Of a stretch of DNA of 64,000 nucleotides, positions 7,249-45,052 are shown one piece after another. The translations under genes and the position numbers were made by a program. The notes beneath the pieces are model-generated. The model had not been told where the DNA came from. It made no database searches and saw only the letters and a program-made list of their open reading frames with translations. Positions within the stretch are counted from its first letter, which is position 1. The number at the start of each line of letters is the position of its first letter. Source of the DNA: an uncultured Syntrophobacterales bacterium (lineage in GTDB: Bacteria; Desulfobacterota; Syntrophia; Syntrophales; UBA5619); NCBI GenBank assembly GCA_903928915.1, contig CAIYSL010000018.1, positions 90,075-154,074 of the forward strand, given 5' to 3'.

Positions 7249-7344
7249 CAGTCGCGCAAACGCCAGGTGCCAGGGGGTAAGGCTCTTCTCTGCGCCCTTC
7301 CCGGGGGAGGCAGGTTCTCACGGAGCGCTCGAGCGAGTGTCACA

Positions 7345-8853: not shown

Positions 8854-8868
8854 CAAAGGATCGAACGC

Positions 8869-9330: not shown

Positions 9331-9363
9331 TGCATCAAACCGCTAAGGTGAAAGGAGGAGAGG

Positions 9364-23516: not shown

Positions 23517-23607
23517 GAAGCGGGCCGGCCCGAGGGCCGGCGAGGCAACGAGGGGCTGTTATGCCGGGCCCGCAAGAAGACAACTACGGTCACAGAAAGG
23601 ACAGGCA

Positions 23608-24822: not shown

Positions 24823-24830
24823 CGGCTCAG

Positions 24831-24868
24831 GCAGCTCTCCGCAGGACTCCTGCGGAGAGCTGCATTTC
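24831..24868 (+). terminator. Stem-loop terminator candidate
   Basis: gcagctctccgcag / ctgcggagagctgc 14-bp stem (24831-24863) followed by ATTT. Lies 9 nt after the M24 stop codon. Confidence 0.45.
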
Positions 24869-24995
24869 GCCATAACGATCACTGCCGGCTCTGCACGCAA
24901 CGGGATCGGCGCAGACCGCAAATCTCGAAAACGCCGGCCGGATCGGATTTCCCGGGTGTCCGGCGACCGCACAGGGACACGCGTGAGGAGGGCGC

Positions 24996-25967: not shown

Positions 25968-26043
25968 GGCGCCGGCAGGGCGCCCTGTTGCCGCGGCAGA
26001 GGGAGTTTCTTTCAACCGGTCGCTCGTCAGGCGGAGGTGACGC

Positions 26044-26949: not shown

Positions 26950-27074
26950 CTGCGCTTCGCGCAGGGCAGAGCTGCCCAGAATGCCGCACCGGCGAGGGAG
27001 CTTGGCAAACATCCGTCGCTGCGGTCAACGCGGGAACCACCCGGGAAAAGGCTACAACACCAAAGGAGGAACCA

Positions 27075-28619: not shown

Positions 28620-28628
28620 GCGCGCCAG

Positions 28629-28658
28629 GGTGCGGCAGACCCTGGGGTCTGCCGCACC
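28629..28658. other. GC-rich 13-bp stem-loop without U-tract
   Basis: ggtgcggcagacc ctgg ggtctgccgcacc. Lies 10 nt after the binding-protein stop codon. Confidence 0.35.
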
Positions 28659-28685
28659 GGCGGGCCATTATCCCCGGTACGTTCC

Positions 28686-29915: not shown

Positions 29916-29982
29916 ACCCCCGCCGCGGTGAGCTAATTCCGGCGGGCCGGTAAACGGCGACGCCGCGCTGGAGAGGAGAGCC

Positions 29983-30984
29983 ATGCCAACGATGAAGGCG
30001 ATAGTGATGGAACGGCCCGGCGGGCCCGAGGTGCTGCGGTACGTGGATGTGCCCCTGCCGGAGCCGGCGGCGGGGCAGGTGCTCGTCCGGGCCCATGCCA
30101 TCGGCGTCGGGATGCCCGAGGTGCTGGTCCGGCGCGGCCAGTACGGCTGGATGCCGCCGCTGCCGGCCATCCCGGGGATCGAGATGAGCGGCGTGGTCGA
30201 GAAGCTAGGCGCGGGGGTGGCGACGCTGAAAGTTGGCCAGCCGGTCTTCGTTTCGGCGCGCGAGCTTGCCGTCCGCGGCGGCTGTTACGCCGAGTACATC
30301 GCCGCGGAGGCGGAGGCCCTGTACCCCCTGCCCGCGGGTATCGACCTCGACGCGGCAGCGGCCCTGTCCAACTACCAGGTCGCCTGGCATCTGCTCCACA
30401 GCGCCCCCAACGGGATGCGGTACGAATCCTTTGCGGTGACCGCGGCGGCCGGCGGGGTGGGTTCCGCGCTGGTCCAGTTGGGAAAGCTCGCGGGCAAGCG
30501 GGTGATCGGGATGGTCGACACGGACGAACGGGCCGCCTTCGTCCTTGCACTCGGGGCCGACGGAGCGGTCAACTGCGTCAGCGAGAACGTGACCGACCGC
30601 GTCCGCAGCCTCACGCAGGGCCGCGGGGTGGACATGATTTTCGACTCGCTCGGGGGGCCGCAGTTCGCCGACCAGTTCGAGCGGCTGGCCCCCTTCGGGA
30701 TGGCGGTCTCCTTCGGATTTCTCGCCGGCCCGCCGGGCGGCGACGTGATCGGGGCCATCCGCAGGCGGATCACCGACTGCCTGGGGATGCGGATCTTTTC
30801 GATGCACGCCTTCGACCAGGACCGCGCGAAACGGCGGGGGGTGACGGAAGAGCTGTTTCGCCTGGCAGCGGCGGGGAGGATCAAACCGCCGATCTTTGCG
30901 CGCCTTCCCCTGGCGGAGGCGGGCCGGGCCCAGGCCCTGATCGAGGCGGGCAAGGTGCAGGGCAAAGTCATCCTCAAGCCCTGA
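29983..30984 (+). CDS. Quinone oxidoreductase / zeta-crystallin-type MDR
   Basis: MKAIVMERPGGPEVL...GQVLVRAHAIGV...AAAGGVGSALVQLGK...GKVQGKVILKP. No catalytic-zinc motif. Confidence 0.85.
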   Translation: MPTMKAIVMERPGGPEVLRYVDVPLPEPAAGQVLVRAHAIGVGMPEVLVRRGQYGWMPPLPAIPGIEMSGVVEKLGAGVATLKVGQPVFVSARELAVRGGCYAEYIAAEAEALYPLPAGIDLDAAAALSNYQVAWHLLHSAPNGMRYESFAVTAAAGGVGSALVQLGKLAGKRVIGMVDTDERAAFVLALGADGAVNCVSENVTDRVRSLTQGRGVDMIFDSLGGPQFADQFERLAPFGMAVSFGFLAGPPGGDVIGAIRRRITDCLGMRIFSMHAFDQDRAKRRGVTEELFRLAAAGRIKPPIFARLPLAEAGRAQALIEAGKVQGKVILKP

Positions 30985-31234
30985 TGCGGATCTTTAGAAA
31001 TCGCATCCCTCCGCGCGCTGGATCTTTTCCGACCCTGCGGCTCCTCGCTGCGCTGCAAAGACGAAAGTCGCGCTCGCGCGCTCAGACAATCGTCTTTGCT
31101 CCCGCTCCGCTGCGGAGGCAGGATGCCCCGGAAGATCTCCAATGCGCGCATCCGGGATACGATTCCCAAGGGGCGGAGGTTTTTTCCGGACGGTATCGGA
31201 CGGGTGTTTGTGGGAAAAGAAAGGCGGGAGTGCT

Positions 31235-32218
31235 ATGAAGAAGCTCTGGCTGTCCATCGTCGTTTTCGCGTTTTGTGTGTGCGGGGTCGGTGCGGACTGT
31301 GCGGCCGCCGCGGCGGAGTACCCGAACAAGCCGATCACCTGCATCATTCCCATGGAGCCCGGGGCCGACGGCGACATCAACATGCGCACGATCATGAAGA
31401 AGGCCTCGGAGTTCCTGGGCCAGCCCATCATGGTGGTGAACAAACCCGGCGCCGGCCAGACCATGGGGTACCGGGAGCTGTACAAGGCGAAACCCGACGG
31501 GTACACGATCGGGACCTGTGCCGCCTCGCTGATCATGGCCAAGATGCAGGGGATCTATCCGCAGAACCATCGCGATTTCTCGCTCGTCGCCTTCGGGTAT
31601 CATGCCCTGCCGATCGTCCTGGCCTCGACCGCGTCGAAGCATTCCTTCCAGTCAATCGAGGAGGTCGTCGCCTTCGCCAAGGCAAATCCGAACGCAGTCT
31701 CGATGGCCACGACGTCGGTGGGCGGGGCCTACTGGATCGCCGCCCAGATGGTCGAGATGGCCCTGAAGGTGGATCTCAACCTGATCCCCCAGGAGGGTTC
31801 GGCGGGGTTTGTCGTGACCGCGGTGGCGGGGGGGCACGCGGATTTGGGGGTGACCAGCTTTTCCGCCGCCAAGGGGCAGATCGAGGCGGGAAAGATCCGG
31901 TTCCTCGGGGTGGCCGGCCCCCAGCGCTACCCGGGGAAATTCAATCACGTCAAGACCCTCAAGGAGATGGGGTACGACGCCAGCATGAGTTCTTTCGCGG
32001 CCGTCATGGGGCCGCCCCGGATGCCGAAAGAGATCGTGAACAAGCTCTCCGCGGCGATCGAGAAGGCGATCAAGGACCCCGAAGTGGAAAGGACGATCGT
32101 CAGCCGCAACATGATTCCCGAGTACATGCCCCCCGAGGCGTTCCTGAAATTCTGCAACGAGCAGGAGGTTGGCTACCGGACAGTCCTCGAAAAACTGAAC
32201 ATGCTGAAGACCAAATAG
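31235..32218 (+). CDS. tctC: TctC/Bug family substrate-binding protein (second copy)
   Basis: ATG 31235. Signal peptide, then AEYPNKPITCIIPMEPGADGDINMR...VVNKPGAGQTMGY...KPDGYTIG. Confidence 0.85.
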   Translation: MKKLWLSIVVFAFCVCGVGADCAAAAAEYPNKPITCIIPMEPGADGDINMRTIMKKASEFLGQPIMVVNKPGAGQTMGYRELYKAKPDGYTIGTCAASLIMAKMQGIYPQNHRDFSLVAFGYHALPIVLASTASKHSFQSIEEVVAFAKANPNAVSMATTSVGGAYWIAAQMVEMALKVDLNLIPQEGSAGFVVTAVAGGHADLGVTSFSAAKGQIEAGKIRFLGVAGPQRYPGKFNHVKTLKEMGYDASMSSFAAVMGPPRMPKEIVNKLSAAIEKAIKDPEVERTIVSRNMIPEYMPPEAFLKFCNEQEVGYRTVLEKLNMLKTK

Positions 32219-32336
32219 GGTCCCGGCAACCGCCCGGGAGGTTGGTTCCGCAGGCGCGGCCCTCCGGGCGGGATAGGATCGCAGCAGGAAAACGGGTATC
32301 TTCCATAGCAGGGAGCTTTGCGTGGGGAGGAAGCAG

Positions 32337-32801
32337 ATGCGCAGGGTGGCGGCGTCGACCGGTGCGTGGGTGTGGTGCATTCTGTTGTTCGGCCTCGGTC
32401 TGACGATCATGATCTCGTCGCTGCAGATCGGATTCGGCAGATTCACCAAACCGGGGCCCGGGCTTTTCCCGTTTATCTGCGGGCTGATCCTCGCCGTGCA
32501 GAGCATCGTCCTGTGCCTGGCCGGCGATGCGGGATCCGTCAAGAACGACGAGACCCTGCGCCACCCCGGAGCCGCGCCGAAATTCCTCGCCCTGATGGCG
32601 GTGCTTGTCCTCTGGATCCTGGCGATGCCACTTTTCGGCTGGGTCGCCCTGACCTTTCTGGCGACCCTCGCGATCGCGAAGATCATGGCTGCGGAAGGCT
32701 GGGTGAAGCCGCTCATCCTGGCCGCCGTCAATTGCGGGTTCTCGTACCTGCTGTTCGGATACCTGCTGGCGATCGACTTGCCGACGGGGTTTTGGGGATA
32801 G
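32337..32801 (+). CDS. tctB: TctB family small permease (second copy)
   Basis: GPGLFPFICGL motif, four TM segments. ATG 32337 has GGGGAGG 6 nt upstream. The track ORF starts at GTG 32322. Confidence 0.7.
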   Translation: MRRVAASTGAWVWCILLFGLGLTIMISSLQIGFGRFTKPGPGLFPFICGLILAVQSIVLCLAGDAGSVKNDETLRHPGAAPKFLALMAVLVLWILAMPLFGWVALTFLATLAIAKIMAAEGWVKPLILAAVNCGFSYLLFGYLLAIDLPTGFWG

Positions 32802-32824
32802 GGCCGTACAGGGGGGCAGCCTGC

Positions 32825-34318
32825 ATGGAATTCGACGCCTTGTTCAACGGATTCGCCACCTTCCTGTCGGTCAAGTACATCCTGGCCTGTCTGATCGGGG
32901 CGCTTCTCGGCACGGTCATCGGCGTTCTGCCGGGACTGGGTCCCACGACGACGATGAGTCTGATGCTCCCCTTCACGGCCTCGCTGGACGCCACCTTCGG
33001 CATCATCATGCTGACGGGGATTCTGGTCGGCTCTCAGTACGGGGGATCCACCACCTCGGTCCTCGTCAACATCCCGGGGGAGGCAGCCAGCGTCGTGAGC
33101 TGCCTCGACGGCTACCAGATGGCCAAGAAGGGTCGGGGTGGGGCCGCCCTGGCGCTGGTTGCCGTCGGTTCCTTCATCGCGGGCACGGTGGCGATCGTGG
33201 GCACGCAGGTCTTCGCCCCGCTCCTGGGTTCGGCGGCCCTTTCCTTCGGCCCCCCCGAATTCCTCGCCCTGATGGTCCTCTGCTTCATCCTCTTGTCCAA
33301 CCTCAGCGGCGATTCCCCGGTCAAGGGGTCCTGTATGTTCGCCCTGGGGCTCTGGCTCAGCGCCATCGGCGTCGGTCCCCTGGACGGTGTGGCGCGTTTT
33401 TCCTTCGGGGTCGACGACCTGATGCTCGGGATCGAATTCCTGCCCGTGGCCGTGGGGCTCTTCGGCATCAGCGAGATCCTCATCACCGCCGTTGTCCCCT
33501 ATGTCCCGCCGGTGCTCGAGAAGATCCGCTTCAGGGACCTCTACCCGAACGGGGAGGAGGTGCGACGCTCCGCAGGCCCGGTGGCGCGGGGGTCGATCCT
33601 CGGTTTCTTCGTCGGCCTGGTGCCCGGTCCCGCCACGGTCATCGCCACCTTCGTCTCCTACGCCCTGGAAAAGCGGGTCGCGCGGCGGCCGGAGGAATTC
33701 GGCCGGGGCGCGGTGGAGGGGCTGGTCGGTCCCGAGTCGGCCAACAACAGCGCCTGCGTGGGGTCGATGATCCCGCTGCTCACCCTGGGGATCCCCTTCA
33801 ACGCCCCCTCGGCGGTCCTGCTGGCGGGGCTCCTGATGCATAACGTGGAGCCGGGGCCGCTCTTGTTCCAGAACGCCCCCCAGGTGTTCTGGACCTACAT
33901 CGCGGCGCTCTACATCGGCAACGTGGTCCTGCTCTTCTTGAACCTCCCGCTCGTCGGGATCTTCGCCCGTGTGGCCACGATCCGCCCGGTGATCCTGATG
34001 CCCGTGGTGAGCACCATCTGCCTGCTGGGCGTGTACTGTTCGCGAAACAACCTGTTCGATGTCTGGGTGATGGTGGCCGCCGGGATCGCCGGCGTGTTCT
34101 TCCGGATCTGGCGGTACCCCGTTGCCCCGCTGGTCGTGGGGCTGATCCTGGGCCCCATGGCGGAGAACAGCTTTCGGAAGACGCTGCTGATGTTCCACGG
34201 GAGCCTGATGCCCATGGCGGAGCGGCCGATCGCCGTGGCCATCCTGCTTGCGGCAGCCGCCTTCATCGTGGTGAAGGTCGTCTATTACGCGCTGCGGCGC
34301 AGGCGGGCTGCGGTGTAA
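32825..34318 (+). CDS. tctA: TctA family large permease (second copy)
   Basis: ATG 32825. GVLPGLGPTTTMSLMLP...YGGSTTSVLVNIPGE...GPESANNSA. Clearly paralogous to 7345..8853. Confidence 0.9.
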   Translation: MEFDALFNGFATFLSVKYILACLIGALLGTVIGVLPGLGPTTTMSLMLPFTASLDATFGIIMLTGILVGSQYGGSTTSVLVNIPGEAASVVSCLDGYQMAKKGRGGAALALVAVGSFIAGTVAIVGTQVFAPLLGSAALSFGPPEFLALMVLCFILLSNLSGDSPVKGSCMFALGLWLSAIGVGPLDGVARFSFGVDDLMLGIEFLPVAVGLFGISEILITAVVPYVPPVLEKIRFRDLYPNGEEVRRSAGPVARGSILGFFVGLVPGPATVIATFVSYALEKRVARRPEEFGRGAVEGLVGPESANNSACVGSMIPLLTLGIPFNAPSAVLLAGLLMHNVEPGPLLFQNAPQVFWTYIAALYIGNVVLLFLNLPLVGIFARVATIRPVILMPVVSTICLLGVYCSRNNLFDVWVMVAAGIAGVFFRIWRYPVAPLVVGLILGPMAENSFRKTLLMFHGSLMPMAERPIAVAILLAAAAFIVVKVVYYALRRRRAAV

Positions 34319-34381
34319 AGGACAGGTGTCGTTCGGACGGCCGCGCAGGCCGGGAGAGGACAAGGAAAGGAGGATACGCGT

Positions 34382-35194
34382 ATGCGACTCGTCGACATTC
34401 CGCCCTATCGCGGGGCAGGGTATGAATACAACCCCAAGGAGGGGCCGTGGATCCGGGAGCTGATCGACAACCTGCGGCAGCGGGGACAGCTGGAGGGCGT
34501 CGAGGTGGAGATCGACGAGGGGCACTTCACCGATCATACCTATGAGACCCGCAACGAGGAGGTCTGGGCGAACCTGGCGCCGGGGTTCCTGCGGCGGGTC
34601 CGGGAGTGTTCGGAGAGCGGCCGGTACGACGCCATCATCTGTCACGTCCCGATCGACGAGGGGGCGATCGCCGCGCAATTCGTCTCCAAGATACCCGTGG
34701 CGCTGGCGCTCCACTCGGCTGTCCATTTCGCCTCCTTCATCGGCGATAAGTTCTCGATCATCGACATCAGCGACCAGCACGGCCCCCGGCAGCGGCATCT
34801 CGTCCAGAATTACGGCCTCAACCACAAGCTGATGAGCATCCGGACGATCAACCGCACCTCGACGCAGGTGATGCGGCTGGTGCGGCAGTTCCCTAAAGGG
34901 GAGCGGGCGCGGGCGCCCGAGATCCAGGGGATCGTCCTCGACGCCGTGGCGCAGGGGATCAACGCCATCGAGAAGGAGCGGGTGGACACGCTGATCCTGG
35001 GCTTCCCCGGGCTGGAGCTGCTCCAGCGGGAGATCAGGCAGGGCCTCGACGATAAGGGCTACGACGAAATCCCGATGGTCTGCATGTTCACCGCCTCGGT
35101 GGAGATGGCAAAGGCGATGGTCAACATGGGGCTGAAACAGGCGGCCCGGGCTTACCCGGGGGACGGCCTGCGGGCGAAGCCGGAGTACCGGTAG
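34382..35194 (+). CDS. Asp/Glu/hydantoin racemase-like protein (tentative)
   Basis: 270 aa. YDAIICHVPIDEG and VDTLILGFPGLELL resemble the two half-site motifs of this superfamily, but the second lacks the Cys I recall from two-thiol racemases. Confidence 0.45.
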   Translation: MRLVDIPPYRGAGYEYNPKEGPWIRELIDNLRQRGQLEGVEVEIDEGHFTDHTYETRNEEVWANLAPGFLRRVRECSESGRYDAIICHVPIDEGAIAAQFVSKIPVALALHSAVHFASFIGDKFSIIDISDQHGPRQRHLVQNYGLNHKLMSIRTINRTSTQVMRLVRQFPKGERARAPEIQGIVLDAVAQGINAIEKERVDTLILGFPGLELLQREIRQGLDDKGYDEIPMVCMFTASVEMAKAMVNMGLKQAARAYPGDGLRAKPEYR

Positions 35195-35367: not shown

Positions 35368-36300
35368 ATGAATATACCGACTCGTACCGGTGAGCCCTCG
35401 ATGCAGAAAATCCCCCGCATATCCTTTCAAAAAAAACAGAATGCGCAACTGGAATTCGAAATTGTTACGCTGCAGAGTCTTTTCCGCCGGCAGACGGAAC
35501 TGAGCTTCGCGCTTGATAAGCCGCACCGGGTCGATTTTTATTCCATTATGTACATCACTCGGGGCACCGGGATCCATGAAATCGACTTTGTCCCCTATGT
35601 GTATAGGGCCGGCAGCGTGCTTTTCATTTCCCAAGGGCAGGTGCACGCCTTTGATGCAGGCCCGGGCCGGGACGGATACCTGCTGCTGTTCACCGAACAT
35701 TTTCTTGCAAAGAACTTGATCCATTCCGACCTGCTCTCTCTTTACCGGCTGTACAATTACCACCTGCACGTACCCATCCTGCAACCGGAGGAGCTCGGCA
35801 GGGAAGATTTCCGCGGCCTCGTTTCCGAGCTCTATCGGGAGTATCGGGCGGAGGAGAATTTTGCCCGGGAGGACCTTCTGCGGCTGTGGCTGAAGCTTCT
35901 GTTGTTGAAGGCGGAGCGAATCAAGCGCACCCTGATCGCGGATCAGAAGAATGCCGGGTGGCCGACCCTGTTCGGAGCCTTCCGCAATCATCTGGAAAGG
36001 AGTTTCAGCGAAACCCGGAACGCAGCAGATTACGCAGGGAGACTGAATATCTCCTATAACCATTTGAATAGAATCTGCAAATCCATGGCCGGCGCCACGG
36101 CCAAGGAGTTCATCGACCGCTTCGTGGTTCTGGAAATCAAACGACGTCTTGCCATGGCCGATATCTCGGTAAAAGAGCTGACGTACGCAATGGGGTTCGA
36201 CGAACCGACCAATCTGGTCAAGTATTTCAAGAAGCACACCGGCCAATCCCCGACCCAGTTCAAACATTCCCTGCAATCCGTACCGCAACGCCCCCAATAG
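35368..36300 (+). CDS. AraC family transcriptional regulator
   Basis: N-terminal cupin-like sensor (HRVDFYSIMYITRGTGIHEIDF) and C-terminal double HTH (AADYAGRLNISYNHLNRICK...VKELTYAMGFDEPTNLVKYFKKHTGQSP). GC is lower than in flanking genes. Confidence 0.85.
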   Translation: MNIPTRTGEPSMQKIPRISFQKKQNAQLEFEIVTLQSLFRRQTELSFALDKPHRVDFYSIMYITRGTGIHEIDFVPYVYRAGSVLFISQGQVHAFDAGPGRDGYLLLFTEHFLAKNLIHSDLLSLYRLYNYHLHVPILQPEELGREDFRGLVSELYREYRAEENFAREDLLRLWLKLLLLKAERIKRTLIADQKNAGWPTLFGAFRNHLERSFSETRNAADYAGRLNISYNHLNRICKSMAGATAKEFIDRFVVLEIKRRLAMADISVKELTYAMGFDEPTNLVKYFKKHTGQSPTQFKHSLQSVPQRPQ

Positions 36301-36412: not shown

Positions 36413-37258
36413 ATGAAAAAGGGAATGATCATCTTGGTGGCGATTGCTGTATTCGCGGCCTGCGCCACCGCGCAGACAAAACAGGAGGGAGGCATGAAGT
36501 TGACCGAAAAGGAAAAAGCAGTCGCATTGATAACGAGCCTCGAAACAGGCGATCCAGGGCCGGTCCAGTACATCGATCCCAATCGATACATCCAGCACAA
36601 CCTTATGGCAGCCGACGGGCTGGAGGGTTTTGCCGAACTGATGAAGCAGGTGCCGAAGGGAAGCGTCAAGGCCAAGGTCATGCGGGCCTTCCAGGATGGC
36701 GCGTATGTATTCCTGCATACCCAGTATGATTTTTTCGGCCCGAAAATCGGGTTCGACATCTTCCGGTTTGAAAACGGCCTGATCGTGGAGCACTGGGACA
36801 ACCTCCAGCCCCTGGCTCGGGAAACCGCTTCGGGCCGGAGCCAGTTCGACGGTCCGACCCGGGCCGTGGATTTGGAGAAGACCGAGGCCAACAAGCTCCT
36901 GGTGAAGGGGTTCGTTGCCGACGTCCTGCAGGGCGGGGCTCCCGGACGGATCACGGAATATATCGCCCCGGACCACTACCTACAGCACAATCCTGCCGTG
37001 GGGGACGGATTGGCGGCCCTGGGCAAGGCTCTTGAGGATATGGCCAGACAAGGTGTACCTATGACTTACAGGAGGAACCACATGATCCTGGGCGAAGGTG
37101 ATTTTGTGCTGACAGTTTCCGAAGGCCAGTTCCTGGGGAGACCCGCCTGCTTTTACGATCTGTTCCGGGTTGAAAATGGAAGGATCGTAGAACATTGGGA
37201 CACGATAGAAGAAATACCGCCGAGGAAGGACTGGAAGAACGGTAACGGCAAATTTTGA
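36413..37258 (+). CDS. Secreted tandem SnoaL-like / NTF2-fold protein
   Basis: Signal peptide MKKGMIILVAIAVFAACATA. Two internal repeats: YIDPNRYIQHN...DIFRFENGLIVEHWDNLQ and YIAPDHYLQHN...DLFRVENGRIVEHWDTIE. Confidence 0.7.
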   Translation: MKKGMIILVAIAVFAACATAQTKQEGGMKLTEKEKAVALITSLETGDPGPVQYIDPNRYIQHNLMAADGLEGFAELMKQVPKGSVKAKVMRAFQDGAYVFLHTQYDFFGPKIGFDIFRFENGLIVEHWDNLQPLARETASGRSQFDGPTRAVDLEKTEANKLLVKGFVADVLQGGAPGRITEYIAPDHYLQHNPAVGDGLAALGKALEDMARQGVPMTYRRNHMILGEGDFVLTVSEGQFLGRPACFYDLFRVENGRIVEHWDTIEEIPPRKDWKNGNGKF

Positions 37259-37621: not shown

Positions 37622-38446
37622 TTAGATCCGCTGGAACCACTCCCGCACCGCCGCGACGAAGGCCGGCTCGACACCGTTGTAGAAGTGATCGCCGCCGTCG
37701 ATCAGGCAGAGCCGGGCGCGCTCCCCGGCCGCCGCGGCCACGGCTTCGGCGGGATAGACCTCCTCCGGCTCCAGGCTTCCGCGGAGCACCAGGATCTCTC
37801 CGGGATAGCGGCGCGCGTTGTCCACGGTCAGCGGAACATTCTCGGCCAGGTCCACCCAGCTGGCGGCGGTGATGGCGTACCACCAGCCGGGAAGCGCGAT
37901 CATCCGGTCGCCCTGGCCCTCCGCCACCAGGCGCCGTGCCCGCGCATCCACCTCGGCGTGCTGCTCTGCCGCCAGCATCCCCCGCTGGGAGCACTGCGGC
38001 AGGTATTCCTTTCCGCCGCTCCCGGCCGAACAGAGGACCAGCCCCGCCACGGAAGCGGGGTGGGAGGCGGCATAGGCGGCCGCGCCGATGCCGCCGAAGC
38101 TGTGGCCCGCCAGGACGATCTTCCGGAAACCGCGTCTCCGTAGCTCCGCCATGGCCCCGGCGATGTCCGACTGGCTGTCGGCGAATGTCTCCCAGGCCCC
38201 GCCGTAGGAGTCCCGGCCGTTGCGAATACCTCCCAGGTCGTGGCCGCGGCGGTTCATGGCCAGGCAGCTCCACCCCAGCGCGACCAGATGGGGCGGCAGG
38301 ATCCGGCAGGGGCCGGTGTAGAAGTTCATCACCTTGCCGTGGACCAGAAGAACCGCGCGCTCTCCCGGGCCGTCCGCGGGGGTGAAGACCAGACCGTCCA
38401 GGTGATATCCGTCGACGGCTGAAAAACTGATCAGTTCGGTCCTCAT
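37622..38446 (-). CDS. Alpha/beta hydrolase
   Basis: Internal ATG 38446. Nucleophile elbow LAGHSFGG. VLLVHGKVMNFY... is typical of the fold. Confidence 0.8.
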   Translation of the reverse strand: MRTELISFSAVDGYHLDGLVFTPADGPGERAVLLVHGKVMNFYTGPCRILPPHLVALGWSCLAMNRRGHDLGGIRNGRDSYGGAWETFADSQSDIAGAMAELRRRGFRKIVLAGHSFGGIGAAAYAASHPASVAGLVLCSAGSGGKEYLPQCSQRGMLAAEQHAEVDARARRLVAEGQGDRMIALPGWWYAITAASWVDLAENVPLTVDNARRYPGEILVLRGSLEPEEVYPAEAVAAAAGERARLCLIDGGDHFYNGVEPAFVAAVREWFQRI

Positions 38447-38594: not shown

Positions 38595-39476
38595 TCACCG
38601 GGTGTCGCCGAGCAGGGCTTCGAGCTCCCGCAGGCGCTCGTCGGTCTGGGTCAGCAGGGCCGGACCTTCCCTGTCCAGGAAATCGTATTTGATCTCCCCC
38701 AGGCGGTTGTACGGGAGGAGGTCGATTGCCGGCCCCCCCAATTCGTTCCGGGCAAAAGCGGCGATGGCGCCGATTGCGGCCGCGTCGTCGTTGAACCCGG
38801 GGATCAGCGGGATGCGCAGGCGCAGCGGCTTGAGCTTTGCGATCCGTTTCGCGTTTGCCAGGATCAGCCGGTTGTCCCGGCCGGTGGCTGCGGCGTGCTT
38901 GGCAGGGTCCAGGTGCTTGATGTCGAGAAGGACGAAGTCCGCCTGTTCCAGTACCCCCCTGAGCCGCGCCCAGGGGGCCGCGCCGCAGGTGTCGAGGGTC
39001 GTGTGCAGCCCCTCCTGCCGGCACCGCCCGAGGAGTTCCCGGCTGAACCGGGGCTGACTCATGGGTTCGCCCCCCGACAGGGTGACGCCGCCCCCCGACC
39101 GGCGGTAGAATTTCACATCCCTGCGCACTTCAGCCAGTACCTCGTCCGCGCTCATCGTCTTGCCGGAGAGGGACCGGGCCTCGTTCGGGCAGACAGGGCA
39201 GCAGCGACCGCAGCCGCGGCAGAGGGTTCGGTCATACGTCGGCTTGCCCTGTACGAGCCGGACGGCCCCGTGCGGGCATGCGGACCGGCAGGCGCCGCAG
39301 AGGGTGCATTTGCGCCGGTCGTAAAGCAGCTCCGCACTCGTTGCCTGCGATTCCGGGTTCTGACACCAGAAGCAGCCAAGCGGGCACCCCTTCAGGAAGA
39401 CGGTCGTCCGGATCCCCGGACCGTCGTGGAGGGAGCAGCGCTGGATGTTGAAGACCACACCGCGTATGGGGTTCAT
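38595..39476 (-). CDS. Glycyl-radical enzyme activating enzyme (radical SAM, two auxiliary 4Fe-4S motifs)
   Basis: Internal ATG 39476. CPLGCFWC (CxxxCxxC), CTLCGACRSACP and CRGCGRCCPVCP ferredoxin motifs, GGVTLSGGEP SAM motif. The start is 8 nt after the GRE stop. Confidence 0.9.
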   Translation of the reverse strand: MNPIRGVVFNIQRCSLHDGPGIRTTVFLKGCPLGCFWCQNPESQATSAELLYDRRKCTLCGACRSACPHGAVRLVQGKPTYDRTLCRGCGRCCPVCPNEARSLSGKTMSADEVLAEVRRDVKFYRRSGGGVTLSGGEPMSQPRFSRELLGRCRQEGLHTTLDTCGAAPWARLRGVLEQADFVLLDIKHLDPAKHAAATGRDNRLILANAKRIAKLKPLRLRIPLIPGFNDDAAAIGAIAAFARNELGGPAIDLLPYNRLGEIKYDFLDREGPALLTQTDERLRELEALLGDTR

Positions 39477-39484
39477 GGCGACCG

Positions 39485-41878
39485 TCAAGCGGAGGCGAAT
39501 TCCGTGCGCTGGATGATCTCGTCCTGCACGTTGGTGCCCAGTTCGGTGAAGTAGGCGCTGTAGCCCGCCACCCGCACCATCAGGCTCTTGTGCCGCTCGG
39601 GGTGCCGCTGCGCCTCCCGGAGGGTCTTCGCGTCGACCACGTTGAACTGGGCGTGCTTGCCGCCCTCGGCGAAATAGGCCTCGATCAGGGTGTAGATCTT
39701 GGCCAGGTCCTCCTGCGACTTCATGGCCGAGGGGTGGAACTTCATGTTCAAGAGGGTTCCGAACAGCGGGACCTGGTCGATCTTCGCCGCGGAGTTGATC
39801 ACCGCGGTCGGCCCCTTCACGTCCATCCCCTGGCAGGGCGATACGGAACCGTCCGCCAGGGGGTGCCCCGCGAGCCGGCCGCTGGGGAGCGCGCCGGTGC
39901 GCTTGCCCGCTGCGCCGTGCACCGAGATGGAGTACGGGGCGGGCAGCTGCCGGGTGCCGTAGGGGCCTTCGATCGCGGAGACCATGCGCCACCACCAGCC
40001 GTACAGCTCGGCGGCGATCCCGTCGGCGAAATCGTCGTCGTTGCCGTACTTCGGCGCCCTGAGGAGCCTTTTCCGCAGCGCCTCGCGGTTGTCGAAGTTC
40101 ATTGCCAGGGCCTCCAGGAGTTCGCTGCGGCCGACGGCGCCCTCCGCGAAGACGCACCTGCGGACGGCCGCCAGGGAATCGACGGCATCGATCATCCCGA
40201 CGGCGGACTGGATGATGATGTTGTACCGGGCCCCGTCGGCCAGAGCGGTCTTCCCCCTGCGGATGCAGTCGTCGGTGAAGGCGGAAGAGAGCAGGGCCGG
40301 TATCCGCTGCGAGCGGTATACCCGCTGCCTGCCGATCAGCACCCCACCCTCGCGGGAGAAGTGTTCCACCTGGGCCGTGAAGGCCGCCCACAGGTCGTCG
40401 TAGCCCTTCATCCTAGCGAATTCACCGGTCCGCGGCCCGAGCTGCTTTTTCGTCCGCGGATCGAAGCCGTTGTGCAGCGCCAGCTCAAGGCATTTGGCGA
40501 TGCTGATGAACAGAACGTCGAAGGGCGAGGTCCGGCCCGGGACGATGGCGTGAACGCAGCCGCTGATGCAGTGGGTCCTCGCCTCCGCGAGCGGCGCCCC
40601 GGTCGCGAGCAGCCAGGGGATGTCGCTGGCGTCGTTGAAAAAGGCGGGAAACCCGAGCCCCGCCCGGACGAGCTCCAGCCCCCGGAGGGCGAGCTGGCGC
40701 GGCATCCTGTCGTGGCAGCGGATGGAGAGGGTCGGATGGGGCGTCCGCGTCCGCTCGGCCGCCCGCAGGAACAGGTAGGAGAGCTCGTTGGTGGCGTCCC
40801 GGCCGTCCGCGGTCTGACCGCCCAGGGTCACGTTGTGGTACTGGGCCTCGCCGGAGACGATCTCGTTGTACTTGATGCTGCTGAACAGGCGCAGCGTGCT
40901 GAGTTTGACCCGGTAGCACTCCAGCAGTTCCAAGGCCTGCTCCGGGGTGATCTTCCCTTCGCGGAGGTCCTGCGCGTAGCAGGGGTACAGGAACTGGTCC
41001 ATCCTCCCGGGCGACTCCTGGGCGCGCGACTCCAGGTGGATCAGGATATGGAGGAACAGGGATGACTGGATCGCCTCCGGAAAGGTGCGCGCCGGGTGGG
41101 CCGGGACCCGGTCGCAGACCGCGGCGATCCGCTCCAGCTCCTCCCTGCGGCGGCCCGTCGCCTTCTTTGCCAGCGCCCGGGCGAGGTCGGCGTACCGCTC
41201 GGCATAGCGGATCCCGGCCTTCAGGACGATGGCCAGGGCCTGGAGAAAATCGACCTTCCGGAGGGAATCGTCGTCGACGACCGCGGTAGCGGCCAGTTCG
41301 GCCTCCACCTCCGCCAGCACCCCGAGGAACCCCTTCCGCAGGGCCTTCTCGTGGTCCACCGCATGGTAGCCCCGGTCGATGTCGAGCGTCGTCTTGGCGC
41401 GGTACACCCAGGCGCCGTCCTCGCAGGTCTCGGCGATGTGCGCCTTCTGGGCCTCGTCCATGAGGGCGAAGAAACTGCCCTGCAGACAGCCGGCCTGGAA
41501 ATAGTCGATTACCCTGGCCACGTCCTTCTGCGTGTACGGCTCCGCGAGCATCCCATCGAGGTCCTGGGAGAGGATGGCCTGGTCGACTGCGTACTCCGGG
41601 TACCATTCGAAGTACATCGGCCGGCTGGAGAAGGCGCCCACCAGGAGCTCCTCGGGTTCGATGAAGATCGGGATCCCCTCTGCGATCCGCTCCAGAGCCC
41701 TGGCCCGGCGTATCGGCGTGGGCAGCCCCTCGGTCTGCCGGCAGCTTTCCAGAAGCAGCAGGGCGCGCGCCAGGGACAGCTTTGCCCCTTCCCGGTGTTT
41801 CAGCGCCTGTTTCCACAGCCGTTCACCCCGGGACTTCCCGGCGTATTCCGCAAGCGGCGTTACCTTCGGGGCCGCCAT
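39485..41878 (-). CDS. Glycyl-radical enzyme, PFL2/dehydratase-like architecture, substrate unknown
   Basis: Internal ATG 41878 after GGGGAGG, 797 aa. C-terminal glycyl motif MVRVAGYSAYF (Gly codon 39563-39565). Putative thiyl loop THCISGCVHAIVPG (Cys codon 40556-40558). Confidence 0.9.
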   Translation of the reverse strand: MAAPKVTPLAEYAGKSRGERLWKQALKHREGAKLSLARALLLLESCRQTEGLPTPIRRARALERIAEGIPIFIEPEELLVGAFSSRPMYFEWYPEYAVDQAILSQDLDGMLAEPYTQKDVARVIDYFQAGCLQGSFFALMDEAQKAHIAETCEDGAWVYRAKTTLDIDRGYHAVDHEKALRKGFLGVLAEVEAELAATAVVDDDSLRKVDFLQALAIVLKAGIRYAERYADLARALAKKATGRRREELERIAAVCDRVPAHPARTFPEAIQSSLFLHILIHLESRAQESPGRMDQFLYPCYAQDLREGKITPEQALELLECYRVKLSTLRLFSSIKYNEIVSGEAQYHNVTLGGQTADGRDATNELSYLFLRAAERTRTPHPTLSIRCHDRMPRQLALRGLELVRAGLGFPAFFNDASDIPWLLATGAPLAEARTHCISGCVHAIVPGRTSPFDVLFISIAKCLELALHNGFDPRTKKQLGPRTGEFARMKGYDDLWAAFTAQVEHFSREGGVLIGRQRVYRSQRIPALLSSAFTDDCIRRGKTALADGARYNIIIQSAVGMIDAVDSLAAVRRCVFAEGAVGRSELLEALAMNFDNREALRKRLLRAPKYGNDDDFADGIAAELYGWWWRMVSAIEGPYGTRQLPAPYSISVHGAAGKRTGALPSGRLAGHPLADGSVSPCQGMDVKGPTAVINSAAKIDQVPLFGTLLNMKFHPSAMKSQEDLAKIYTLIEAYFAEGGKHAQFNVVDAKTLREAQRHPERHKSLMVRVAGYSAYFTELGTNVQDEIIQRTEFASA

Positions 41879-41898
41879 CACGTCCTCCCCGGCCCCTG

Positions 41899-42924
41899 TC
41901 AGGGCCGTACGTCGATGACGATTCTGAGTGCGTCGGCCACCTTGTCCGCGAACACCTGGAAGGCCTTCGCCGTCTCCGCCAGCGGAAACCGATGGGTGAT
42001 CATCGGCAGGATCTGGAGCTTTTTCTCCTCCAAGAGGCGGATCGCCTCCGGAAAGGCCCCGGCCGCGCCCTTGGAACCGTAGATGATCGGTTCTTTCAGG
42101 TACAGGAAGGAGGGGTCGAACTCCTGCATCTTTTCGGTGATGATGCTGAACACCACCACCGACCCGTTCGACCTGACCACGTCGAAGGCGCTCTGGAGCC
42201 CACCCGTGGTGCCCGAGGACTCGCAGACCGCGTCGACGCCATGGGGAAACCACCCCCTGATCCTCTTCACCGGGTCCTCCCTGCGGATGTTCACCACCTC
42301 GTCGGCGCCGAACCGCCGGGCCATCTCGAGGCGGAAATCCCGCGTCCCCGCCATCACGACCCGCTCCACGCCCCCCATCTTCAGGAGCTGGAGGATCATC
42401 AGCCCGGCGTTGCCCGGCCCGATGACCGCGGCCGTCTTGATCTTCGCGAGGTCGAGCTTGCGCACGGCCCGGACGGAGCAGCCGATGTTGACGATGTTCT
42501 GGGCCTCGTCCAGCGAAATGGCGGGGGGCAGTTTGCTCACGGACCGGTAGTCCACCTTGATGTACTCGGCCATGCAGCCGTCCACGTTCCGGCCGAGGGA
42601 GCGGCGATTTGTGCAGTAGAGGTCCATGCCCTGGCGGCAGAGTTCGCATTCCCCGCAGCCCCACCCGCCGCTGGAGACGACGGGATCCCCCTCCTTCAGG
42701 TGCGGCGTGAGCCTGGGGCTGCCCAGCTTGGCGACGACCCCCGAATACTCGTGTCCGAGGGTCACGGGGTACGTGGCCGACACATGGCCGCCCACGACGC
42801 CCACGTCGGTTCCGCAGATGCCCACCCGGTGTACGGCGATCAGGACCTCCTTCTCGCCCACCTCCGGGACCGGCACCTCCTCGATCACGATCTTGCCCCG
42901 CTCATGGACCCGTGCTGCCTTCAT
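41899..42924 (-). CDS. Zinc-dependent alcohol dehydrogenase (threonine/sorbitol dehydrogenase-like MDR)
   Basis: Internal ATG 42924 after GGGGAGGG. GICGTD...GHEYSG catalytic-zinc motifs, structural zinc CGECELCRQGMDLYC, NAD motif VIGPGNAG. Confidence 0.85.
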   Translation of the reverse strand: MKAARVHERGKIVIEEVPVPEVGEKEVLIAVHRVGICGTDVGVVGGHVSATYPVTLGHEYSGVVAKLGSPRLTPHLKEGDPVVSSGGWGCGECELCRQGMDLYCTNRRSLGRNVDGCMAEYIKVDYRSVSKLPPAISLDEAQNIVNIGCSVRAVRKLDLAKIKTAAVIGPGNAGLMILQLLKMGGVERVVMAGTRDFRLEMARRFGADEVVNIRREDPVKRIRGWFPHGVDAVCESSGTTGGLQSAFDVVRSNGSVVVFSIITEKMQEFDPSFLYLKEPIIYGSKGAAGAFPEAIRLLEEKKLQILPMITHRFPLAETAKAFQVFADKVADALRIVIDVRP

Positions 42925-43152
42925 CGTAACGACCCTCCCCGAGAAATTGAATAGTTGCAATGCGCTACAATCCTCTAACATACCGGCCGGGGATGTCAAC
43001 AGTTTCGTGCGCATGGTGCGCGGTGCGCCGGCGGATACATAAAAAGATTCAGCTTGCGGGGGAAATGTGCTATTTTTCTCCCATCCGCAGGATCCCCGGC
43101 ACGGGGCTGTTTATCCGTCTTCGAATCTGTTCTGACAGGGAGGTCAAGACCG

Positions 43153-43644
43153 ATGATTCCGCCTATCAAGAAGATTCTGTACACGACCGATCTCAGCAAG
43201 AATTCCGTTTACACCTTCTACCACGCGGTGGATATGGCCGAAAAGTATGACGCCCGGATCGTCATCTTGAACGTCCTGGAACCGATCTCGGCCAAGGCCT
43301 ACGGCAGCGGCAAGGAAAAACTGGAGCTCGAACAGCATAAGGTGTCCCTGGAGGTGATCAAGAACCGGATCCAGGCGTTCTGCAAGAAAGTGGAGCAGCG
43401 CAACGCCACCTGCGCCCTCGTGGTCTCCGAGATCCTCGTGCGGGTGGGCGATCCGGCCGAAGAGATCCTGAAAGCGGCCGAAGAAACGGCGTACGATCTG
43501 ATCGTCCTGGGAACGCATGGCAAGGGGTTCCTCGCCAAGACGCTCCTGGGGAGCGTTTCGCGGGCAGTGATGGACCGGGCCCGGAAGCCCGTCTTTCTCG
43601 TCCCCATCCCTTCGGAAGAGTCGACCGCCTGGGACGAACTGTAA
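43153..43644 (+). CDS. Universal stress protein (UspA family)
   Basis: ATG 43153 after GGGAGG. KKILYTTDLS...LIVLGTHGKGFLAKTLLGSVSRAVMDRARKPVFLV. Confidence 0.85.
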   Translation: MIPPIKKILYTTDLSKNSVYTFYHAVDMAEKYDARIVILNVLEPISAKAYGSGKEKLELEQHKVSLEVIKNRIQAFCKKVEQRNATCALVVSEILVRVGDPAEEILKAAEETAYDLIVLGTHGKGFLAKTLLGSVSRAVMDRARKPVFLVPIPSEESTAWDEL

Positions 43645-43753: not shown

Positions 43754-45052
43754 CTAGGCCGGACCGTCCGTCCTCTGCCGGCAGTGGGTCTCGGTGGTCA
43801 GGGCGGCCGCGAGAACCGAGAGTGCGGCGAGGACAACGATGAGGGTGAATCCGGTGCGGTAGGCGGCCAGGTCGTAGATCCGGACCCCTCCCGCCAGGCC
43901 GCCCTGCCAGTTGCGGTCGAGCAGCCAGCCGATGGCCGGCTGGAGGATGATCGTCCCGAAGGTCGACCCCATATTGTAGATCCCGCTGGCCGTGCCGGCA
44001 AGCCGCGGCGGGACGGACTCCTTTCCGAAGGCGAACCCCAGGATCACCGAACCGTTCGCGAGACCCGCGACGATCACCAGCAGGATCAAGAGCCAGAGCG
44101 GAATCCCCGGAATAAACAGAATCGGGACCCAGGCGATGGTGGCCACGAGCGCTCCGGCGATGAGGAGGGGTTTGCGCAGCCCCAGCCGGTCGGAGAGCAT
44201 CCCCAGCGCGATGGACCCCAGGGCGTAGCAGATCAGCAGCGTCGAGGTGACGGCCGAGCTCGCCGCGGCCGAGATCCCGTGGTGGGTCGTGAGAAAGGGC
44301 ACCCCCCAGAGACCGGCGAAGGCCAGGACCGGTCCGGTCAGGCCGCAGCCGGCAAGGGCGAGCCACCGGACGTTGCGCTCCCTGAGGACCGTCACCAGGT
44401 CGGCCAGGAGCGTCGCCGGGGAGAGGGCGGTTTCCGGCCGGGAGGGGGCGAAGCTCCGGTACCCTTTCCGGCTGGGGTCGTCGCTCACGATCCGCCAGAT
44501 CGCCGCTCCCAGCAGGACCAGTGCCGCTGCCACGGCGAACATCACCGGCCGCCAGCCGAACCGCTCGACGAGAAACCGGAGCGGGGGGCCGGCGGAGACG
44601 GCGCCGGCGACGCCGCAGAAGAGGGCGACGCCGCTGAGCGTGGCGAAGAATCGGACCGGGAACCAGCGCGTGGCAAGGGTGAGCACCGCCACGTAGCCGA
44701 TCCCCGCCGCCCCGCCGATCAGGAACCGGCCCAGGTTTGCCGGGGCCAGCGACGAGGCCGAGGCGAACAGGACCGTCCCGACGGCGGCGACGAATGCCCC
44801 GGCGGTCAGGAGTTTCCGGGGGCCCCAGTGGTCGGCGAGCAGCCCGGTCGGTATCTGCATCAGGGAGTAGCTGTAGAAGTAGAAGGCGGTGAAATTGCCC
44901 AGCGCCGCCGCCCCGATCCGGAAATCGGCCATCAGCTGGTCGGTCATGACGGCGGGGGCGACCCGGTGGTAGAACCCGCTGAAGTAGAAGGCCGCGCCCA
45001 GACCCCAGACGACCCAGGCGAGCGACGCCGGCGGATGGTGTGTATGCTCCAT
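43754..45052 (-). CDS. MFS transporter
   Basis: 432 aa, 12 TM-like segments. MQIPTGLLADHWGPRKLL is a typical MFS loop 2-3 motif. Confidence 0.85.
   Translation of the reverse strand: MEHTHHPPASLAWVVWGLGAAFYFSGFYHRVAPAVMTDQLMADFRIGAAALGNFTAFYFYSYSLMQIPTGLLADHWGPRKLLTAGAFVAAVGTVLFASASSLAPANLGRFLIGGAAGIGYVAVLTLATRWFPVRFFATLSGVALFCGVAGAVSAGPPLRFLVERFGWRPVMFAVAAALVLLGAAIWRIVSDDPSRKGYRSFAPSRPETALSPATLLADLVTVLRERNVRWLALAGCGLTGPVLAFAGLWGVPFLTTHHGISAAASSAVTSTLLICYALGSIALGMLSDRLGLRKPLLIAGALVATIAWVPILFIPGIPLWLLILLVIVAGLANGSVILGFAFGKESVPPRLAGTASGIYNMGSTFGTIILQPAIGWLLDRNWQGGLAGGVRIYDLAAYRTGFTLIVVLAALSVLAAALTTETHCRQRTDGPA

Follow-up and report, generated by a model that had tools for sequence, protein, structure and literature searches.

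The DNA analysed here, a stretch of 64,000 nucleotides (the window) from contig CAIYSL010000018.1 of an uncultured Syntrophobacterales bacterium, carries on its minus strand an intact operon for a zinc-dependent alcohol dehydrogenase (ADH), a glycyl-radical enzyme (GRE) and a GRE activase, and every element of the radical relay is present in it. The GRE belongs to an uncharacterised family that has a non-canonical Cys loop, with His443 two residues after the catalytic Cys441, and a dedicated, probably NADPH-dependent ADH. No NCBIfam equivalog cut-off was reached in a profile search, and its function is unassigned, as an initial annotation of the window had stated. GREs catalyse difficult anaerobic chemistry, and a new pathway has come to light with each family to which a function was newly assigned; examples are the formation of trimethylamine, H2S, p-cresol, toluene and skatole and the use of hydroxyproline and anhydro-sugars. 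Whole GRE clades are still unassigned according to the June 2026 GRE review; unassigned clades with non-Glu loops are numerous, and a specialist would not be very surprised by this one.

Operon, radical relay and Cys loop

Translation of the minus-strand open reading frames (ORFs) confirmed the three tightly packed genes at the coordinates first assigned to them (Table 1), with gaps of 20 nt between ADH and GRE and 8 nt between GRE and activase, and neither gap holds a small-subunit ORF. Shine-Dalgarno-like sequences precede the GRE start (GGGGAGGA) and the ADH start (GGGGAGGG). The GRE matches the Pfam domains PFL-like (PF02901, E 2.5e-163) and Gly_radical (PF01228, E 1.5e-32), and because the ORFs are long and the profile matches very strong, chance is no concern. 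Independent gene calls on six metagenome contigs with an identical GRE reproduce all six protein lengths given in Table 1, those of the ADH, GRE, activase, alpha/beta hydrolase, universal stress protein (USP) and major facilitator superfamily (MFS) transporter. The activase has the C31-x3-C35-x2-C38 motif and two CxxCxxCxxxCP motifs (C56/59/62/66 and C85/88/91/95) that had been read from its translation, scores 338 against NCBIfam TIGR02494 (cut-off 174), and lies 3′ of the GRE in most family loci with downstream DNA present. No microcompartment shell protein, aldehyde dehydrogenase or phosphotransacylase was found among about 56 window ORFs scanned (52 against Pfam and 4 against NCBIfam only, small ORFs left out), which agrees with the initial annotation. 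A promoter consensus scan gave no site in the ADH-USP intergenic region, and the TTGACA-containing stretch there is a putative promoter only. The locus is compact and tractable, with three genes, no accessory subunits and no microcompartment, and it offers an uncommonly clean way in to a new GRE substrate.

The GRE has the C-terminal motif MVRVAGYSAYF and the Cys loop ARTHCISGCVHAIVPG, and the codons of Cys441, His443 and Gly772 lie exactly where they had been placed. In HMMER alignments, Cys441 falls on the catalytic Cys of the arylacetate decarboxylase AAD, glycerol dehydratase (GD, Cys433), two propanediol dehydratases (PD and 9RCO) and HypD, and His443 falls on the Glu of GD (Glu435), PD, 9RCO and HypD and on the Leu of AAD. 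Cys441 and Gly772 are invariant in 116 homologs. An AlphaFold model built from the 116-sequence alignment (pLDDT 92.7, pTM 0.93) has Cys441 at the tip (residues 440-442) of the hairpin E437-439/E443-445 and Gly772 at the tip (771-772) of the hairpin E767-770/E773-776, and in this model the two tips correspond to the canonical Cys and Gly loops; a first model from 19 close homologs, with a pLDDT of 68 and a disordered barrel core, was discarded. Alignments to five solved GREs and the modelled hairpin agree with the earlier proposal that Cys441 is the thiyl Cys and that His443 stands at the eliminase-Glu position. The protein has what defines the GRE superfamily, namely a PFL-like barrel with an RVxG[FWY] glycyl domain, a Cys at a hairpin tip and an adjacent activase.

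The initial annotation took GCVH to point to a different proton relay and asked for its conservation in homologs. The His at Cys+2 held in 42 of 49 family members; the other seven have Ser, Asn or Gln there, all with His at Cys+3, and otherwise share the family signature. Every family member (P0001-P0050; window codons 40547-40552) has His at Cys+2, at Cys+3 or at both. The loop reads GCVH followed by Ala, Gly, Ser or Pro in ADH-linked members and GCV[HSNQ]H in ADH-less members, and it looks as if the histidine was shifted from Cys+3 to Cys+2 in the ADH-linked branch, to judge from these loops. AAD-like and Chloroflexi relatives also have His at Cys+3. The residues counted at Cys+2 in the 140 nearest GRE cluster representatives include Glu (76), Asp (14), Ser (8), His (7), Gln (6) and Asn (4), and no PDB chain has a GCVH loop, even when the Cys-loop segment alone was the query; it is only in comparison with characterised enzymes that a non-Glu Cys loop, Cys-x-His included, is out of the ordinary. 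GCVH is thus a weak basis for proposing a different proton relay: since Cys+2 varies within the family (7/49) and Cys-x-His recurs in 7 of the 140 representatives, a role for His443 as a dedicated general base is unlikely, and by analogy a hydrogen-bonding role like that of PhdB Gln484 would fit at least as well. The natural Cys+2/Cys+3 series (His, Ser, Asn, Gln) offers a probe of this position's role in Glu-less GREs, PhdB and AAD included. In the approach to the Cys loop, window His436 (codon 40571-40573) is Asn in cluster representative P0001, which is catalogued as 100% identical.

Table 1. Positions of the operon, of key GRE codons and of the adjoining genes in the window
Feature	Position	Strand	Basis
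Alpha/beta hydrolase, 274 aa, possible accessory esterase	37622-38446	-	Pfam Abhydrolase_1, Hydrolase_4
GRE-activating radical-SAM enzyme, 293 aa, two-ferredoxin-motif insert	38595-39476	-	Pfam Radical_SAM + Fer4; TIGR02494
GRE, 797 aa, uncharacterised family, GC[VLI]H Cys loop	39485-41878	-	Pfam PFL-like + Gly_radical
Gly772 codon, glycyl-radical site in RVAGYS	39563-39565	-	Invariant; hairpin tip in model
Tyr649 codon (= GD Tyr640; PhdB Tyr691 by offset only)	39932-39934	-	Invariant in family
Asp454 codon (= GD Asp447; PhdB Trp495, IAD His514 by offset)	40517-40519	-	Alignment
His443 codon (Cys+2; Glu position of the eliminase/isomerase CXE)	40550-40552	-	Aligns with GD Glu435, AAD Leu
Cys441 codon, thiyl-radical cysteine	40556-40558	-	Aligned to catalytic Cys of five solved GREs
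Gln287 + Glu288 codons, on loop bearing GD His281/Ser282	41015-41020	-	Alignment
Tyr171 + His172 codons	41363-41368	-	Invariant in family; AAD Trp-Asn, GD His-Val here
Zn-dependent medium-chain ADH, 341 aa, operon gene 1	41899-42924	-	Pfam ADH_N + ADH_zinc_N
Intergenic region, ADH operon / divergent USP gene	42925-43152	.	ADH Shine-Dalgarno; TTGACA-containing promoter-like stretch on minus strand
Divergent USP, 163 aa	43153-43644	+	Pfam Usp, E 8.4e-31
MFS transporter, 432 aa, anion:cation-symporter (ACS) type	43754-45052	-	Pfam MFS_1

Active-site pocket and family placement

Seven active-site positions of GD were mapped on the window GRE by HMMER/MAFFT alignment (Table 2). Three are identical to GD (Tyr347, Asp454 and Tyr649, for GD Tyr339, Asp447 and Tyr640, which we take to be the distal hydroxyl-binding residues), the other four are polar, and none of the seven matches AAD. 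On these alignments the pocket would be polar and GD-like at its distal end, with the usual Glu/His pair exchanged and a Glu on the 287/288 loop. The proton donor of GD, His164, is replaced by Tyr171 with His172 adjacent. Gln287 is kept in 48 and Glu288 in 46 of the 49 family members, and Glu288 is a candidate for a relocated acid/base. Members of the ADH-linked branch have Asp at position 454 and the others have Glu, save for an ADH-less group with GCVHP and Asp454; this residue is predicted from the alignment to contact the distal end of the substrate. At this position a homology model led to the proposal that PhdB Trp495 stacks on the phenyl ring, and IAD His514 hydrogen-bonds the indole nitrogen. 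Because residue 454 is invariably acidic, a hydrogen-bond-donating, polar or cationic distal group is favoured. Position 649 is His in AAD and AAD-like proteins. The residues E344-x-Q/H-[YF]-H348-N349, His654 and Arg285 are common to the family and AAD and missing in GD.

Table 2. Residues of the window GRE and of AAD at seven active-site positions of GD
GD	Window GRE	AAD
His164	Tyr171 (His172 adjacent)	Trp
His281	Gln287	Tyr
Ser282	Glu288	Met
Tyr339	Tyr347	Phe
Glu435	His443	Leu
Asp447	Asp454	Trp
Tyr640	Tyr649	His

The family is tight, with about 50 cluster representatives of at least 58% identity from wetland, lake and sediment metagenomes and from Syntrophus-like and Thermodesulfobacteriota metagenome-assembled genomes (MAGs). 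Of the 1.84 billion representatives in a library clustered at 50% identity, only six exceed 690 bits, after which the score falls to 588. The family's sharply defined active-site signature, which aids study of the GRE family, comprises the following invariant or nearly invariant residues: Gly170-Tyr171-His172, Glu283, Arg285, Gln287-Glu288, Glu/Asp344, Gln346-Tyr347-His348-Asn349, Gly440-Cys441, Asp/Glu454, Tyr649-Ser650 and His654. The next relatives, at 47-54% identity, form three clades with GCVQH (Chloroflexi), GCVVP (a large clade) and GCVLH with the AAD signature (Trp171, Trp454, His649); no consistent gene context was found for the GCVQH clade (a Chloroflexi contig) or for the GCVVP clade. 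In a rough neighbour-joining (NJ) tree with two dehydratases only as outgroup, the family and its three sister clades group with AAD, apart from the dehydratases, in a Glu-less AAD-like superclade in which Cys+2 is Leu, Val, Gln or His. The likely substrate is an environmental rather than a gut metabolite, because the family comes from Syntrophales-like and other Thermodesulfobacteriota organisms in wetland, lake and sediment metagenomes. One MAG (GCA_040960625.1; L008 and L010) has two family paralogs, P0040 and P0032, each sharing about 63% identity with the window GRE. P0040 stands in the order SBP_bac_5, GRE, galactonate-dehydratase-like enolase and C45 hydrolase, and P0032 with divergent tctCBA, GRE and activase, followed by a convergent ADH, SBP_bac_5, an amidohydrolase and an S15 hydrolase. 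These different contexts in one MAG suggest that substrates have diversified within the family.

None of the NCBIfam equivalog models reaches its cut-off with the window GRE: HpsG scores 504 (cut-off 1000), HypD 494 (1100), HpfG 445 (1000), CutC 437 (1050), IAD 477 (1100), HPAD 388 (1150) and PFL (TIGR01255) 133 (994). The best NCBIfam match is the broad PFL2/GD subfamily model TIGR01774, at 574 with a cut-off of 678. The best PDB sequence matches are AAD (7E7L, 552 bits, E 1.6e-164) and GD (1R8W, 513 bits), with identities of 38% to AAD, 38% to GD and 39% to the propanediol dehydratase 9RCO, and BssA and MasD are low among the PDB matches. Foldseek returned GREs only, with TM-scores of about 0.9 for all GRE classes; glycerol and propanediol dehydratases are closest by E-value and AAD has the lowest rmsd. 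Assignment to a known family was rejected on the equivalog scores and on the lack of a PDB chain with GCVH. The Cys-x-Glu of the 1,2-eliminases (GD, PD, HpfG, HypD, HpyG, HpzG, CutC, IslA/IseG and HpsG) and of the isomerases (HplG, YbiW and PflD) is absent, with His443 in its place. The AAD signature (Trp171, Asn/Tyr172, GCVLH, Trp454, His649) is likewise absent, with Tyr, His, GCVHA, Asp and Tyr instead. HPAD and IAD features are missing, there being no Cys-x-Glu and no small-subunit ORF, with both equivalogs below cut-off. There is no adjacent Cys-Cys as in PFL, the loop having Gly440-Cys441, and the operon has no ORFs for the small Fe-S subunits of X-succinate synthases.

The set of Cys-x-Glu eliminases with which the GRE was compared in the initial annotation is too narrow, as Glu-less GREs are on record: PhdB (C-x-Q), AAD (C-V-L), and PFL and BSS (C-x-S). 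The June 2026 review lists four decarboxylases, namely HPAD and IAD (both Glu), PhdB (Gln) and AAD, and contains no Cys-x-His enzyme, nor do the GRE papers listed for 2025-26 add one; no characterised Cys-x-His or ADH-linked GRE was found in literature searches. A limonene GRE was considered as a counterpart and set aside, the published enzyme being fumarate-adding. The proper comparison is with the Glu-less decarboxylase-related clade, not with eliminases alone. By residue offset only, the Cys+2 Gln of PhdB becomes His in the window GRE, Trp495 becomes Asp, Tyr691 remains Tyr, and His327 falls near Ala286/Gln287.

ADH partner and gene neighbourhood

The tight coupling to the ADH extends beyond the window. 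In the window's branch, defined by GC[VLI]H followed by Ala, Gly or Ser and by Asp454, an ADH ortholog lies directly upstream of the GRE in all 18 loci with upstream DNA. The ADH-linked loci are L001-L007, L012-L014, L019, L020, L025, L028-L033, L035 and L036, some of them duplicates of one contig. The upstream orthologs are 72-89% identical to the window ADH, and in L010 a 57% ortholog lies convergent downstream. Against NCBIfam, the best matches of the window ADH are L-threonine 3-dehydrogenase (tdh, 182 bits, cut-off 458) and IolM, both far below cut-off, and in the PDB it is matched best by sorbitol and threonine dehydrogenases. C37, H58/E59, GPGNAG and the structural-zinc motif CxxCxxCx7C are kept in twelve distinct orthologs of 57-89% identity, with the cysteines C90/93/96/104 conserved in 13 sequences. 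The end of beta2 reads G-[TK]-R in place of the NAD-specifying Asp in all 13; in medium-chain dehydrogenases/reductases (MDR), loss of this Asp predicts NADP(H) use, which is therefore predicted here, and the ADH is probably NADP(H)-dependent. The conserved ADH could report the carbonyl/alcohol partner of the GRE in an aerobic NAD(P)H assay.

The link to the ADH is robust, and the USP, MFS and hydrolase context is lineage-specific. The initial annotation had identified these three neighbours correctly (Pfam Usp, MFS_1 and Abhydrolase) and had asked whether their neighbourhood is conserved; it is kept only in close relatives, and elsewhere the family adjoins tripartite ATP-independent periplasmic (TRAP) or tripartite tricarboxylate transporter (TTT) systems. 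An 89% ortholog of the hydrolase adjoins the ADH in another position in L004, and the gene is absent from the remaining loci. No USP homolog was found in related loci by tblastn, only on contigs of the window's own organism. The best NCBIfam subfamilies for the MFS transporter are PgtP and D-galactonate transporters, both below cut-off; a homolog with 77% identity occurs in L004, at a distance of about 8 kb from the ADH, and one with 46% in L033, and in L035 the order MFS-ADH-GRE-activase lies on one strand, the MFS gene directly preceding the ADH. The ADH-less members are those with GCV[HSNQ]H and Glu454 and the GCVHP/Asp454 group. Directly upstream of ADH-less GREs, TRAP dctPQM genes are found in L011, L022 and L037/38; tctCBA or tctB genes lie divergent to the GRE in L010, L016, L026 and L034, and M24 creatinase-like, CocE/NonD and SBP_bac_5 genes are often near ADH-less members. 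The TRAP binding proteins match generic DctP models only and the TctC proteins match no NCBIfam model; paralogs beside TRAP or TTT transporters offer binding proteins for ligand identification. Because MFS, TRAP and TTT transporter types lie nearby, they point to an organic anion as the substrate for part of the family.

In the loci of Syntrophus type, the operon runs on from trxB-like and lgt genes. In L005-L007 and L036 (Syntrophus sp. GWC2_56_31 type), ADH, GRE and activase directly follow a thioredoxin-reductase-like gene and lgt, the lgt stop overlapping the ADH start in L036, and in L005-L007 a dCache-HAMP-SpoIIE sensor phosphatase and partner-switching genes lie 3′ of the operon. The lack of a transporter in these loci is a hint that the substrate in these organisms is endogenous or permeates the membrane.

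The stretch from the GRE operon to the TTT genes of the window includes genes for a predicted lipoprotein of 281 aa, SnoaL-like at its C-terminus (36413-37258), and for an AraC-family regulator (35368-36300), neither of which was found in the related loci searched; the best NCBIfam match of the regulator is HpaA, the 4-hydroxyphenylacetate regulator, a weak one at 82 bits against a cut-off of 275. A plus-strand cluster at 22869-35194 resembles a hydroxy-acid catabolic island, with genes in the order GntR/FCD regulator, M24 creatinase-like protein, D-2-hydroxyacid dehydrogenase, 3-hydroxyisobutyrate-dehydrogenase-like protein, SBP_bac_5, LarA-like protein, QOR-like MDR, TctC, a 666-aa TctA, and an Asp/Glu/hydantoin racemase. 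The LarA-like nickel-pincer-cofactor isomerase (28686-29915) matches NCBIfam ‘group 22’ at 428.8 (cut-off 400) and has no Pfam match, and the length of the TctA would accommodate a putative fused TctB-like N-terminus. L004 and L035 show synteny of parts of the island with the GRE operon, in close relatives only, and any functional tie to the GRE is hypothetical. The window has two separate TTT systems (7267-10347 and 31142-34318). A gene for a multihaem cytochrome c552 (NrfA-like, 60939-62612) and a large GAF-GAF-adenylate/guanylate cyclase gene (55482-58091) are unrelated to the GRE operon.

Proposed reaction, rival explanations and known systems

We tentatively favour, at well under even confidence, a carbonyl-forming elimination or rearrangement next to a hydroxyl group, with acid/base chemistry other than that of Cys-x-Glu and coupled to the ADH. 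The activase would install the radical on Gly772, and from there it would pass to Cys441 at the Cys-loop tip. The substrate would be a small polar compound, probably an anion, for example a carboxylic acid with a hydroxy or amino substituent. It would enter through the adjacent MFS transporter (through TRAP or TTT systems in relatives), and its 1,2-elimination or isomerisation would yield a carbonyl product. Glu288 (at the GD Ser282 position), Asp454 (GD Asp447) and the His/Tyr pairs 171/172 and 347/348 would supply the acid/base residues, with His443 mainly a hydrogen-bond or proton-shuttle partner, and the co-translated, probably NADPH-dependent ADH would either reduce the carbonyl product or convert a carbonyl precursor to the alcohol that the GRE requires. 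GRE eliminases and isomerases come with an ADH or reductase as partner, DhaT, PduQ and HpfD acting after the GRE and SarD before IslA, and we know of no GRE decarboxylase with a dehydrogenase partner. Elimination was ranked first because dehydrogenase partners typify eliminase and isomerase pathways and because the pocket resembles that of GD and not that of AAD. A more far-reaching claim, that the GC[VLI]H family catalyses an undescribed GRE reaction (for example dehydration, deamination or decarboxylation of a non-aromatic hydroxy- or amino-carboxylate with the use of His, Glu288 and Asp454 and an obligate NADPH-dependent ADH), is rather doubtful; if true, it would establish a further GRE subclass and a new anaerobic pathway for a metabolite abundant in sediments or wetlands. 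Among particular substrates, ectoine/hydroxyectoine, creatine and dimethylsulfoniopropionate (considered from the M24 creatinase-like neighbours) and hydroxyproline isomers, carnitine, sugar acids and 2,3-butanediol were dropped for lack of consistent evidence, and 2-hydroxy acids (considered from the LarA-like/D-2-hydroxyacid dehydrogenase cluster at 22.8-35.2 kb) were dropped as the synteny occurs in close relatives only.

Several observations weigh against the favoured elimination. Every characterised GRE eliminase and isomerase keeps Cys-x-Glu (June 2026 review), and Glu-to-Gln exchange abolished activity in HypD and CutC, the two enzymes tested. By sequence the closest match is a decarboxylase, with AAD at 552 bits and GD at 513, and in the rough NJ tree the family falls within the Glu-less AAD-like superclade. 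The candidate bases are not universal: three of the 49 members have Val or Ile in place of Glu288, and seven have Ser, Asn or Gln at Cys+2. The pocket geometry is read from alignments. With a TM-score of at least 0.9 for every GRE class, the fold search cannot discriminate reaction type. The absence of a transporter adjoining the operon in Syntrophus-type loci leaves the anion argument resting on part of the family.

The decarboxylase relationship itself makes it possible, though less than probable and ranked second to elimination, that the enzyme is an AAD- or PhdB-type radical decarboxylase of an acetic-acid-type carboxylate with a polar substituent (hydroxyl, amino or heteroaryl). The thiyl radical would take the alpha-hydrogen or oxidise the carboxylate, CO2 loss would be aided by Tyr649, His348 and Glu344, the product radical would regain hydrogen, and either a precursor or the alcohol or carbonyl that results would be the substrate of the ADH. 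AAD is the only characterised member of the family's superclade as well as its best PDB match, and the window GRE shares 48-49% identity with metagenomic proteins that carry the AAD signature, against 38-39% with GD and 9RCO. The shared E344-x-Q/H-[YF]-H348-N349 and His654, which GD lacks, fit this reaction, as do Tyr649, at the offset of the essential PhdB Tyr691, and a Cys+2 that is also non-Glu and non-acid/base in PhdB; the variability of Cys+2 (His, Asn, Ser, Gln) suits a hydrogen-bonding role, all the associated transporters are carboxylate types, and the neighbouring AraC regulator best matches HpaA, weakly (82 bits versus 275). The pocket speaks against it: no position of seven matches AAD, the Trp residues of AAD at 171 and 454 are Tyr171 and Asp454 here, and PhdB too has Trp at 454 by residue offset, its closeness to the window GRE being drawn from residue-number offsets only. 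To our knowledge, no GRE decarboxylase has or needs an ADH partner, and decarboxylation requires a stabilised product radical, of which a small aliphatic hydroxy acid is a poor supplier.

A GRE isomerase like YbiW, PflD or HplG, which would act on a sugar acid or cyclic amino acid by ring opening or by C-O or C-N cleavage with no net elimination, is improbable. The pocket rich in His and Tyr would suit it, as would an ADH of sorbitol, threonine or idonate dehydrogenase type, a galactonate-type MFS transporter, the galactonate-dehydratase-like enolase beside paralog P0040, and the M24 creatinase/prolidase-like and S15 hydrolase genes that recur near ADH-less members. The ADH would then adjust a hydroxyl, in stereochemistry or in oxidation state, ahead of the GRE step or following it; in the HplG pathway, dehydrogenases invert C4 of hydroxyproline. 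All three known isomerases, however, keep Cys-x-Glu, and the peptidase-like and sugar-acid-enzyme neighbours vary between loci, none being conserved with the ADH-linked branch. It is very improbable that the protein is an ortholog of a characterised GRE (GD/PD, HypD, CutC, IslA, HpsG/HpfG, AAD or PFL) that tolerates a change of the Glu to His: the protein has a typical fold and length and GD and PD come first in Foldseek, but equivalog scores are about half of the cut-off or less, identity to any solved GRE is at most 39%, the Cys loop departs from that of GD, as do four of the seven pocket residues, all seven differ from AAD, and there is no Cys-Cys pair (PFL), small subunit (BSS, HPAD) or microcompartment gene. 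A degenerate or non-catalytic GRE, such as a radical-storage or regulatory protein, is scarcely credible; it has no specific support beyond the co-transcription of some loci with the housekeeping lgt and trxB-like genes, and Gly772, Cys441 and about twenty pocket and loop residues are invariant in 49 members down to 58% identity, with the cognate activase retained.

Among known systems, AAD of Olsenella scatoligenes (PDB 7E7L) resembles the window GRE in having no Glu at Cys+2, in being a single subunit of about 800 aa without the IAD/HPAD extensions, and in sharing E344, H348, N349, R285 and H654. It differs in GCVLH, Trp171-Asn172, Trp454 and His649, which suit an aromatic substrate, where the window GRE has GCVHA, Tyr171-His172, Asp454 and Tyr649, and we know of no ADH partner for AAD. 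The phenylacetate decarboxylase PhdB (toluene synthase) also has a polar non-Glu residue at Cys+2, Gln484, which is essential and was judged not to be an acid/base catalyst. Its essential Tyr691 (the Y691F variant is inactive) corresponds to Tyr649 by offset only, and offsets of 41-43 residues across about 330 residues (Cys482 to Gly815) suggest a similar architecture. PhdB differs in Trp495 versus Asp454 and in Gln versus His, the two proteins being compared by published residue numbers.

The glycerol dehydratase (1R8W/1R9D) and propanediol dehydratases (5I2A, 9RCO) are the second-best sequence matches (513-477 bits), and GD Tyr339, Asp447 and Tyr640 are kept as Tyr347, Asp454 and Tyr649. An alcohol-dehydrogenase partner handles the carbonyl product in these systems. 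They differ in the catalytic pair Glu435/His164, which is His443/Tyr171 here, and in Ser282, which is Glu288; the transporters suggest an anion in place of a neutral diol, and the window locus has no microcompartment genes. The SarD-IslA and HpfG-HpfD systems are alike in acting on a small hydroxylated organic anion, in pairing a dehydrogenase with the GRE and in importing the anion by TRAP/TTT-type systems. The isethionate and dihydroxypropanesulfonate (DHPS) GREs differ in having Cys-x-Glu and an Arg/Gln/Arg sulfonate clamp, and their dehydrogenases belong to other families.

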